Shown here: piece by piece, positions 39,801-42,800 of the stretch
How positions within the stretch are numbered: position 1 is the stretch's first letter
Layout: every line of letters begins with the position of its first letter
Source: Balanoglossus misakiensis
Taxonomy: Eukaryota; Animalia; Hemichordata
Assembly: GCA_040954595.2 (NCBI GenBank)
Contig: CM082578.2
Coordinates: 17,303,812 to 17,367,811, forward strand
Length of the DNA stretch: 64,000 nucleotides
Direction of reading: 5' to 3'
Program-made: the position numbers and the translations under genes
Notes under the pieces: model-generated
Seen by the model: the letters and a program-made list of their open reading frames with translations, nothing else
What the model was told of the DNA's origin: nothing
Database searches by the model: none

Positions 39801-42800
39801 AATTATTGTTCTGTGGGCAAATGTTGCTGACAGTGGGCAAGGTCACCATCTTTTTCACATAAAGCTTTAGTTATTTTTGTTGTGAAGTTAAGTGTGCTGA
39901 TGATATGTGACTTCCACTTGCTGAAATATGGTGCGGTAGAAACTGTGATATTAATAGCACTATCGTGTGTCGTTTGTTATTTCTACAAGCATCGTGAATT
40001 CGTGATAGTACATGTAGTTATGCTATGACAAGAACATCAATATTTAGTATGCATGTTGATTTATTCAGTACTATTGGCCAGAACATCAATATTTTATCTA
40101 GGTTGTGGAAAGTGTGAATTCTGAACAATTTGGCAAGCTGTTTGCTTTTACTCATCAAACATTGAACTTCAAGAAAATCGTTTCACAAAGGGGCATCTTT
40201 ATGGTATATGAAGTCATTTTATGTACCATGTAATTCCAATAAGCTTGGTCGAACAACACAGATATCCTCATATAATATAATCATTCAGCATTTGTTCCAA
40301 AAAAAATGAGAGAAAAGTTTCTGTTGACAGATCGGAGGTGAAATATTGTTCTTGATTTTAAAAATATTCATGTCACAGTAAATTCAGTGTCCATACATGT
40401 AGATCACTGTGAATGTACATGTATGTGTGTACCTTGCGTGCATGCTTGTGCATTTATTTGTGTGTTGTATTCTGCTTTGTTAGAGTTCATCACCTGCTCC
40501 GTCAAGTCTTGGGATATTTTGTCAAAAGTGTACATAACGCACAAATCAATATTTCAATATTTCTAAACCAAATGAGAGCAGCTGATCACACATCTCTTCA
40601 GCAAATAGTCAAAGTTGGAGGGCTGATCCGTCATAAAAGATGGCTTTGTCTCTCAAGTGGGTTGCATGAAGTTATTGTTCACAGAATATGCCTGACCTTT
40701 GGAGTACTCAAAGCCTCTTATGAGTGTGGTTCGTGTGAAATGTGCACTTTTTAATAGGACCCTGATGATTTATGCGGCTGAAATGGGCAGAAAAAAACCA
40801 TGACGTGTAAACATTGAACTGGCCTTGTCCTGCCTGTGAGCTGTATACAGCTCATAGTAAGTAAACATTTGCAGCAGTGCAATGTAAACGTCAAAGCATT
40901 TGTTTATTTTGCGCTCACTATGTTTTTCGCATCGGGCGGAAAGAGAGAGAGAGAGAGGCAGGCGTGGGCATATTCAATCTCTACAAAACATGTCGTGGGA
41001 GTTTCTCTGTCATCTCTCGGGGAGACGAGGAAAAAAGCGGGCGAACGTGGTGAATCTGACGAGAGAATACTACCAGAGATGCGTCCAGGAAATTAAAGTA
41101 GCCAAGATGAAGGAGAGCACCAAGACACCCAGAGAATATAATCTTCTGAGAAGGTAAATTATTATTCAAGTTCAATACAACAGTCACATGCATTTTTAGG
41201 AAGTTTTTTTGTCAAATTGAAAGGACCGCTTATTGCTTGATCATAGAAACTATAGAACAAAGCACTACAGCCAATCATGGACGAGGTTAATTTCATTTGC
41301 ATTCCTGTGCCCAGTGACAGTACTAACAAGGATGTGATTGGTCAACTTTTATGCACAGTTCAGCCAATATGAAAATTCAGACTAAACAGTGATTCCATTC
41401 TTTTTCTATGCACTGTTGAGCAAAGGAATGTGTAGATGTATACTATAATTTTGTAAACGTAACTTGATTTCAGATTTGAAGTGGTCAATATCAGTGGCAC
41501 TGACAGGCTGATCAAGCGCACAGAAAGTAACAGAATCCTTTACTATGTGGCAGACGAAGACCTGTATGAAGTCCTGTGGGGTCTTCACAACATAACAGGC
41601 CATGGAGGAATCAACAGAATGAAACGAGTTGCCCAAGAAGCCTATGCCAATGTAACGAAGGAGTCCATTGAAGTCTTTCTTGAGTTTTGTCACTCGTGTC
41701 AGATGAAGAGGAAGAGAGGCAGTAGAAGGAACAGCGAGAGTAACTCAGTGAGAGAGACTTCATGTACACATAGTGTCTTTACACCCACATTGCATTATTT
41801 CAGATCCACTGTAATATTGTTAACATGTCGGTAGCTGTACTCTAGATTTGTCCCGTGACAGCGCCCTCTCAGGCAAAATTTTAACACTCTACATAGTCAT
41901 TCAACTTGAATCTTGGTTTATGTTTTCATTTAGACACACACACACGATGGTATTTTTTCAAACACTATGAGAATGGGTATGCAGCTGAGGTTTCTTTCTG
42001 CCAGATGTGTTTGCATTATGGGGGCTGTGTGAAAGCTTTGTTCATAGATGTGTGGGCTTGAGGATAGCCTACATTTACATTTATATTGGTGATCTCAGCC
42101 ATTATACATTCAAGTTTGACTTTTTCTCATCAGGGCATTGACCTTTGTTTCTCAATTTCAGCAATGAAAAAAACAAACAAATTGGATTCCTTTACTAGCA
42201 AGCTTTTAATAATTCATGAACTTTTTTTTCCCTGCACACAGGTAGTGCAGCAGATGTTAATGCAATCTGGTCCCAAGACTCCGACCAAATCTTCCAATGT
42301 GCCAACGTCAGACAAACAGCAGCAGCAACAACAACAACAACAACAACAACTACAGCAGCAGTTAGGCCAACAAACCATTATTATACCACAACAACTGACA
42401 CACCAACAGATGCAACAACTTCTGCAGCAGCAGGTTTTAACACCACAACAGCTACAGCAACTCTTACAGACGCAGCAGCAAGCCATAATTCAACAACAGG
42501 TCAGTTTAGCAACTGTTGTACAGAAGTCTAGAGAAGAAACAGGATACTGTATCTTCAAAGCTCTGTCTGGTTCCCAGAAAGTTATTTGTTTTTAAATCAC
42601 ATATCAATGTGTTATCATTAATAATACATTGAGAACATATCGCTTAAATCCCAAATGGGATGAATCACTCAAATCCACCATTATCGCACCATTTCATGTG
42701 CACAAGAGATTGAAACTAACAGCATGCAATTGTCACAATGACTATCTAGCATTTATGTCACAAAATGATTTTGTGAAACCTCATAGCCAAAATGTGCTCC

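Follow-up and report, generated by a model that had tools for sequence, protein, structure and literature searches.

Intron 1 of the FoxP gene of the acorn worm Balanoglossus misakiensis holds two exons that very likely constitute a genuine, domesticated exon pair derived from a Ginger2 transposase, maintained by selection and probably serving as an alternative N-terminus of acorn-worm FoxP. The gene lies in a stretch of 64,000 nt, referred to here as the window. A transposase origin, domestication and an in-frame join to FoxP had each been proposed in the initial annotation of this DNA, and each is now backed by independent results. In-frame splicing is one feature by which host-transposase fusions are recognized; here the frame and the splice sites fit, and RefSeq gene models of a second acorn worm, Ptychodera flava, make the join.

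The FoxP gene and the exon pair in intron 1

The ordinary FoxP product is 678 aa long and is encoded by a first coding exon and 11 further exons, with GT-AG at every end (Table 1). On its predicted translation the gene is a FoxP, with the zinc finger-leucine zipper and C-terminal forkhead that define the family. Over the whole protein, 615 of 659 aligned residues are identical to P. flava isoform X4, and Pfam FOXP-CC and Forkhead domains are found in both X1 and X4 of that species. Because the ordinary first exon and exon B both end in phase 0, either could be joined to FoxP exon 2; the exon pair and the FoxP body would together give a predicted product of 774 aa.

Table 1. Features of the FoxP locus, with positions in the window (slashes mark splice junctions)
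Feature	Position	Strand	Description
Ordinary FoxP first coding exon	33899..34048	+	50 aa (50 codons), Ser/Thr-rich, phase-0 donor; 45/50 identical to P. flava X4
Candidate alternative promoter or 5' UTR, (AG)n tract	40800..40989	+	Putative; suggested by CpG o/e
Exon A	40990..41153	+	164 nt; ATG, 54 codons and two bases of the Ginger2 N-terminal module; donor AAG/gtaaat
Intron between exons A and B	41154..41473	+	320 nt, GT-AG, phase 2 within Arg55; acceptor ...gatttcag/
Exon B	41474..41747	+	274 nt; beta region, HHCC three-helix bundle, basic tail, short linker; donor TCA/gtgaga, phase 0
Intron from exon B to FoxP exon 2	41748..42241	+	494 nt; acceptor ...cacacag/GTAGTG before 42242; contains the read-through stop
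Common FoxP body, 11 exons	42242..46929	+	Q-rich region, zinc finger-leucine zipper, forkhead, C-terminus; GT-AG ends

Every coordinate of the two canonical exons was re-derived and found to be correct. The ATG is preceded by ...ctacaaaac, the start context originally described, and the ligands of the H-x4-H-x28-C-x2-C motif are located at H93, H98, C127 and C130 of the 146-aa peptide. As proposed, the donor of exon B is in frame with the FoxP acceptor. Read-through past this donor is open for 28 codons, giving 174 aa in total up to a TAG at 41832-41834; the tail has no match in the transposase family and was rightly called unrecognizable. In line with the H2C2 assignment made at the outset, exon B scores 25.7 bits against Pfam Integrase_H2C2 (41475-41747), just over the cut-off of 25.5, and 24.9 bits with the read-through tail included.

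Among the 560 GTs of intron 1, the donor of exon A ranks 11th and is strong, at 7.1 bits; the acceptor at 41474 is of intermediate strength (rank 79 of 485). Exon B has a weak donor at 41748 (2.7 bits, rank 76 of 560); on this crude matrix, derived from only 11 FoxP donors, true FoxP donors range from 1.4 to 12.3 in leave-one-out scoring. A donor inside the domain, at 41652, scores about the same as that at 41748. Between the 41748 donor and FoxP exon 2 (41748-42241), AATAAA and ATTAAA are absent from the + strand. The CpG o/e reaches 0.83 and 0.81 in the bins beginning at 40800 and 41000 and lies at 0.0-0.62 in the remaining ten 200-nt bins across 39800-42199, which is consistent with an alternative promoter upstream of exon A.

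Two further features of the gene were observed. FoxP exon 3 (43382-43631) contains an 18-aa stretch that is present in P. flava X1 and X4 and missing from X3 and X7, which suggests that an alternative acceptor is used. Directly 3' of the ordinary first exon, at 34081-34264, there is an inverted repeat with arms of 26 nt, 96% complementary and separated by 132 nt, which looks like a miniature inverted-repeat element.

Ginger2 origin of the peptide

Comparison with its relatives identifies the peptide as the N-terminus of a Ginger2 transposase. A HMMER search of 1.84 billion representatives returned 788 proteins at E <=0.001. Among the best 150 of these (149 non-self), 20 were looked up by name, and they include human ZBED9/SCAND3 and horse KRBA2, the integrase domains of which are described as Ginger2-derived (PMC3575427). 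The core-opening motif QxDLID was found in 42, and SDNGxEF in 20, of 146 matches examined among the best 150 of 788, many of the remainder being short fragments. A Ginger2 profile built from 15 full-length, core-bearing proteins (475 positions) aligns with exon A at positions 6-68 and with exon B at 61-147, the latter at 91.8 bits, and finds nothing above 0.1 bits elsewhere in the window. The ATG at 40990 coincides with the transposase's own start region.

Ginger2 elements have inverted repeats of 50-180 bp, an H2C2 finger and a DDE core (PMC2836005). The features of an autonomous transposon, a D-D-E core and terminal inverted repeats, appear to be missing here, as had been stated from the outset. 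The core, which the profile covers from about position 160, is unmatched in six frames of the 64-kb window, and a frameshift-tolerant scan 3' of the donor scored 11.6 against a control mean of 11.4, with 19 of 60 random-intron controls as high. The read-through tail is therefore rejected as the decayed start of a core. A repeat scan of 34000-42300 revealed no long inverted pair spanning both exons, and intron 1 had no blastn match at E 0.1 to 80 Ginger2 loci. One inverted pair (41147-41176/41899-41928, 73%) and the other repeats of the scan are chance-like.

The captured part had been described as an H2C2 module. The HHCC finger is indeed present, but the capture is larger and takes in the whole pre-catalytic module, that is, the extension domain and the HHCC bundle. 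NOL4, another suggested relative, finds no support as a source, there being no NOL4 family among the Pfam matches of either the query or its 149 relatives from the best 150. An Atlas search gave unnamed H2C2 clusters only, at 0.92. Sequence searches of solved structures were uninformative: they returned only designed armadillo repeats, through a short repeated match, and the profile returned none.

The intron at Arg55 and relationships within Ginger2

Metagenomes supplied 80 Ginger2 loci for comparison, the 80 highest-ranking of 286. In six of them an intron of 154-1073 nt interrupts the same Arg codon, in the same phase, as the intron between exons A and B. All six (L016, L018, L021, L038, L039 and L056, the donor of L038 being GC) have uninterrupted D, D and E motifs downstream. 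The site is uninterrupted in 55 loci, and 19 are uninformative: ten have no match over the site, five start nearby without an AG and four have an AG only, among which L033 has a matching donor and two resemble ordinary coding sequence. The Ginger2 table of PMC2836005 has no column for introns. Short palindromic tandem repeats lie near the element in some loci of the intron subgroup.

In a 24-row tree, from which the long-branch row L078 was left out, the six intron loci and two protein matches form a clade (99/98), with the acorn-worm pair outside it on a long stem. Forcing the acorn-worm pair into the intron clade is not rejected (AU p 0.104; two extra rows of the constrained clade were added after the tree had been seen), whereas forcing it together with KRBA2 and SCAND3 is (AU p 0.0074). 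The initial annotation likened the peptide to KRBA2/SCAND3. The homology stands, but the source is specifically Ginger2, and KRBA2 and SCAND3 appear to represent a separate capture; orthology with them is further opposed by the absence of a KRAB or SCAN domain and of the core. The Arg55 intron was likely inherited from the transposon, since the same codon and phase are used in six of 80 loci with intact D-D-E motifs. Descent from an unsampled, intron-bearing Ginger2 lineage would be the simplest account, with parallel gain at an AG/R site a possible alternative.

The counterpart in Ptychodera flava

RefSeq models X1-X3 of P. flava FoxP (XP_070559490-XP_070559492) begin with an orthologous stretch of 147 aa joined to the equivalent exon, and X4-X7 begin with the ordinary Ser/Thr-rich exon, the cluster comprising seven RefSeq proteins. 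The presence of this stretch at the start of X1-X3 argues that the exon pair is not a chance arrangement. RefSeq alternative isoforms are usually based on transcript alignments; the P. flava join comes from automatic annotation, filed under the ordinary FoxP name. No paper describing such an isoform was found, as the initial annotation had supposed, but the isoform was already present, unremarked, among these models. The precomputed Pfam entries for X1-X3 show FOXP-CC and Forkhead only, because the H2C2 score falls under the cut-off.

Ungapped, the two modules are identical at 111 of 146 positions and differ at 35. Exon A is 80% identical to residues 1-55 of X1, and exon B is 75% identical to residues 55-145. 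These values are below that of the ordinary first exon (90%) and similar to those of the least conserved FoxP exons, the Q-rich (79%) and the last (75%). The join in P. flava reads ...GIEKNDP/VMQQVLMQ and is one codon longer than that at 41747/42242; similarity extends to Asn145, two codons short of the 41748 donor. At the protein level, the exon pair is conserved in this second acorn worm.

Exon B, searched against proteins of 161-2000 aa, had one match among 30 candidates, P. flava FoxP1-like X3 (74% identity, 99% query coverage). Searches with residues 1-147 found no carrier outside P. flava, with one match in 125 candidates of 416-1327 aa and none in 45 candidates of 30-415 aa. In these three protein searches, which rely on shared words or on one representative per cluster and which carriers in other acorn worms could escape, close copies among annotated proteins are confined to the P. 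flava FoxP cluster; the module is at the FoxP locus in both species. In a metagenome collection, 214 pattern matches to exon B yielded no confirmed relative. P. flava and Schizocardium are reported to have diverged more than 370 million years ago (PMC11175523).

Selection on the module

Both acorn worms retain an open frame, the ATG, the two exons and the four ligands. Of the 35 columns most conserved in the family, as taken from 146 Ginger2 relatives, only one has changed between the two species, against 8.4 expected from codon-aware neutral simulations. None of 5000 neutral simulations was as low by either measure, and the permutation p is about 1e-4. In a further 3000 neutral runs, from which indels were left out, the frame stayed open in 11%, and M1 and the four HHCC residues were kept as well in 2%. 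The mean BLOSUM score of the changes is indistinguishable from neutral (p 0.17). These protein-level tests indicate purifying selection on the module, and the avoidance of conserved columns backs the earlier proposal that the transposon domain has been domesticated. They reveal a constrained protein and are not in themselves proof of a fusion.

Predicted structure and proposed mechanism

AlphaFold2 models the P. flava module (87 aligned rows) with a pLDDT of 94 and a pTM of 0.84, as three helices followed by a beta region and an HHCC bundle. Among 48,161 chains, the best fold match is to residues 8-100 of foamy-virus integrase (Z 8.3, rmsd 3.1, 89 aligned); a Z of 8.3 is about the level that unrelated models can reach, and the match agrees with the sequence evidence. 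Ty3 integrase comes next (Z 6.2) and the N-terminus of MLV integrase is seventh (Z 5.2). Foldseek places the same proteins on top, though weakly (best E 0.025). The module is basic, with a pI of 9.75 here and 9.43 in P. flava and 28 Lys+Arg in each; the ordinary exon that it replaces has a pI of 5.96. In integrases, the pre-catalytic module supports DNA contact and multimer formation. In foamy-virus integrase, the extension domain is required for complexing of viral DNA, and the HHCC domain consists of three bundled helices stabilised by zinc (PMC3738965). FoxP proteins dimerise and repress via the zinc finger-leucine zipper (PMC11998571).

It is proposed that a Ginger2 element inserted in sense orientation into this intron in the ancestry shared by two or more acorn worms. 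The transposase start codon and probably its own intron would have been retained, while the D-D-E core and the ends disappeared, and a donor lying shortly after the HHCC motif would have joined the module to FoxP exon 2. The exon pair would act as alternative first coding exons, replacing the 50-aa Ser/Thr-rich start with a folded, basic, predicted zinc-binding module. Because the leucine zipper and forkhead are kept, the fusion isoform would still recognize FoxP sites and form pairs with ordinary FoxP. Extra contacts with the DNA backbone or with proteins are the most likely contribution of the added module; they may alter how far a subset of FoxP targets is occupied or how strongly it is repressed, much as the HHCC finger of ZBTB11 is required for repression. 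This combination of FoxP-site binding, mixing with ordinary FoxP and added contacts is put tentatively, at slightly less than an even chance. A bolder possibility, and an unlikely one, is that FoxP has been rebuilt as proposed for Pax, one gene giving two factors, with the fusion reading a composite site (a forkhead motif plus an old Ginger2-end sequence) and running a gene network of its own.

Alternative explanations

The exon pair could instead be a gene in its own right, small (174 aa) and nested within FoxP intron 1, with the FoxP join reflecting rare leakage or a gene-model artefact. The weakness of the 41748 donor and the open read-through frame would suit such a gene, and the selection tests speak for a constrained domain whichever way it ends. 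However, three P. flava models share the join, within one codon of the 41748 donor, and the stand-alone form was not seen among proteins of 30-415 aa, a search of 45 candidates with limited sensitivity. The lack of a canonical polyadenylation signal before exon 2 and of a family match in the tail also counts against it, and we regard a nested gene as quite improbable. Far more improbable is a neutrally decaying Ginger2 fragment that is in frame by accident. Its transposon origin and the non-significant BLOSUM test would be expected of such a fragment, but no neutral simulation reaches the observed avoidance of conserved columns, both species have an unbroken frame while no remnant of the core and ends was found, and searches of annotated proteins gave no close copy outside the P. 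flava FoxP cluster.

A different possibility is that the fusion transcript is real but that its point is an alternative promoter, giving FoxP a new time or place of expression, with the domain merely kept folded and harmless. This is consistent with the CpG-richer stretch at 40800-41199. It also draws on zebrafish Zbtb11, in which a protein lacking the N-terminus still rescues whereas point mutants of the four HHCC ligands fail (PMC5384227); selection on such a finger may therefore reflect the cost of misfolding, and it is for this reason that the explanation retains some weight. Yet a non-coding exon or a decayed frame would suffice for a promoter, and the frame, the ATG, both exons and the four ligands have been kept, as have the 28 Lys+Arg in both species. 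A promoter role alone is thus given a chance marginally smaller still than that of a nested gene, and an alternative N-terminus with a selected protein module is preferred to all of these.

Neighbourhood of FoxP in the window

Upstream of FoxP, on the - strand at 20977-26204, are a Bmt2/SAMTOR-like gene (Pfam Bmt2) and a membrane-protein gene without a Pfam match, which we take to be TMEM168-like. BMT2 and TMEM168 presumably also lie near human FOXP2, in which case the neighbourhood would be an ancient microsynteny. Further upstream, at 415-17611, the - strand carries a multi-exon transporter gene of the ABCC/SUR type and the + strand a gene for a TPR protein. Downstream, two tandem paralogous long frames on the + strand (51694-52692 and 53453-54601; 54% identity over 321 aa) encode hydrophobic, Cys-rich products with no Pfam match. 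XPC/Rad4 (- strand) is head to head with an LSM gene (+ strand) at 56382-62352, presumably the same pair as human XPC-LSM3. A tandem repeat, visible as repeating translations, occupies the end of the window (63192-64000).

Comparison with known systems

FoxP has been treated as structurally stable across animals, and an isoform that carries 146 aa of transposase in one lineage would add a new architecture to the family. Acorn worms are central to questions of deuterostome origins and are open to embryology. Probes and phylogenies based on the shared body are blind to the isoforms, and the expression pattern published for P. flava (PMC11998571) could be the combined signal of two proteins. The locus would also offer a non-vertebrate test case of transposase capture in which the parent isoform is still present.

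No paper on a transposon-derived FoxP isoform was found in a literature search mostly outside subscription journals. The main text of a 2025 FoxP survey that covers P. flava contains neither 'transpos' nor 'integrase', and one of its supplements gave no match (PMC11998571). 'Forkhead' is absent from the main text of a screen for fusions of transposable-element and host domains, the supplementary lists of which could include the fusion (PMC12062965), and 'Ginger', 'forkhead' and 'FOXP' are absent from the main text of a tetrapod survey, whose supplementary files could likewise include it (bioRxiv 10.1101/2020.05.07.082677).

Core-less Ginger2 modules also occur in other gene models, including a gecko ZNF282-like KRAB protein that ends just after the module, a lacewing protein with a ZAD and a C2H2 array and a sand fly protein; some beetle proteins carry three or four copies of the N-terminal module (P0142, P0148, P0146, P0008, P0009 and P0010 in our set). 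These gene models suggest that the module may have been captured recurrently, on the bolder reading as a part of transcription factors.

New transcription factors are known to arise when alternative splicing captures transposase exons, and at least 94 such cases have been described in tetrapods (bioRxiv 10.1101/2020.05.07.082677). KRABINER, SETMAR and PGBD3-CSB, treated in the same study (Cosby et al.), resemble the present case in having transposase exons within a host intron, alternative splicing and a parent isoform that is kept. In eight of the nine cases traced in that study, however, an acceptor precedes the transposase frame and the transposase follows host exons, whereas here the transposase would supply the start and a donor would join it to the host. 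KRBA2 and SCAND3/ZBED9 share the Ginger2 source clade and a homologous N-terminal module (PMC3575427), but they carry a whole integrase core behind KRAB or SCAN, and their origin is separate from that of the FoxP module. Ginger2/Tdd transposons have the same H2C2 N-terminus, and one subgroup has the intron position in common (PMC2836005); unlike them, the FoxP module has no D-D-E core or terminal inverted repeats, and extra copies were not seen among annotated proteins.

In the transcription factor ZBTB11, too, an integrase-like HHCC finger lies at the N-terminus; it has been modelled on foamy-virus integrase and is required for repression (PMC5384227). Its spacing is H-x6-H-x29-C-x2-C, as in GIN1/NYNRIN, compared with H-x4-H-x28-C-x2-C in the FoxP module, a comparison made on motif spacing. 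The host part of ZBTB11 consists of a BTB domain and C2H2 fingers, and its finger is a domain conserved across vertebrates, not an alternative exon pair. The FoxP module would be a second, independently sourced case in which to study the role of an integrase HHCC module in a transcription factor. The acorn-worm FoxP locus probably represents a new host-transposase fusion with an unusual host and orientation, and is closest in design to ZBTB11.
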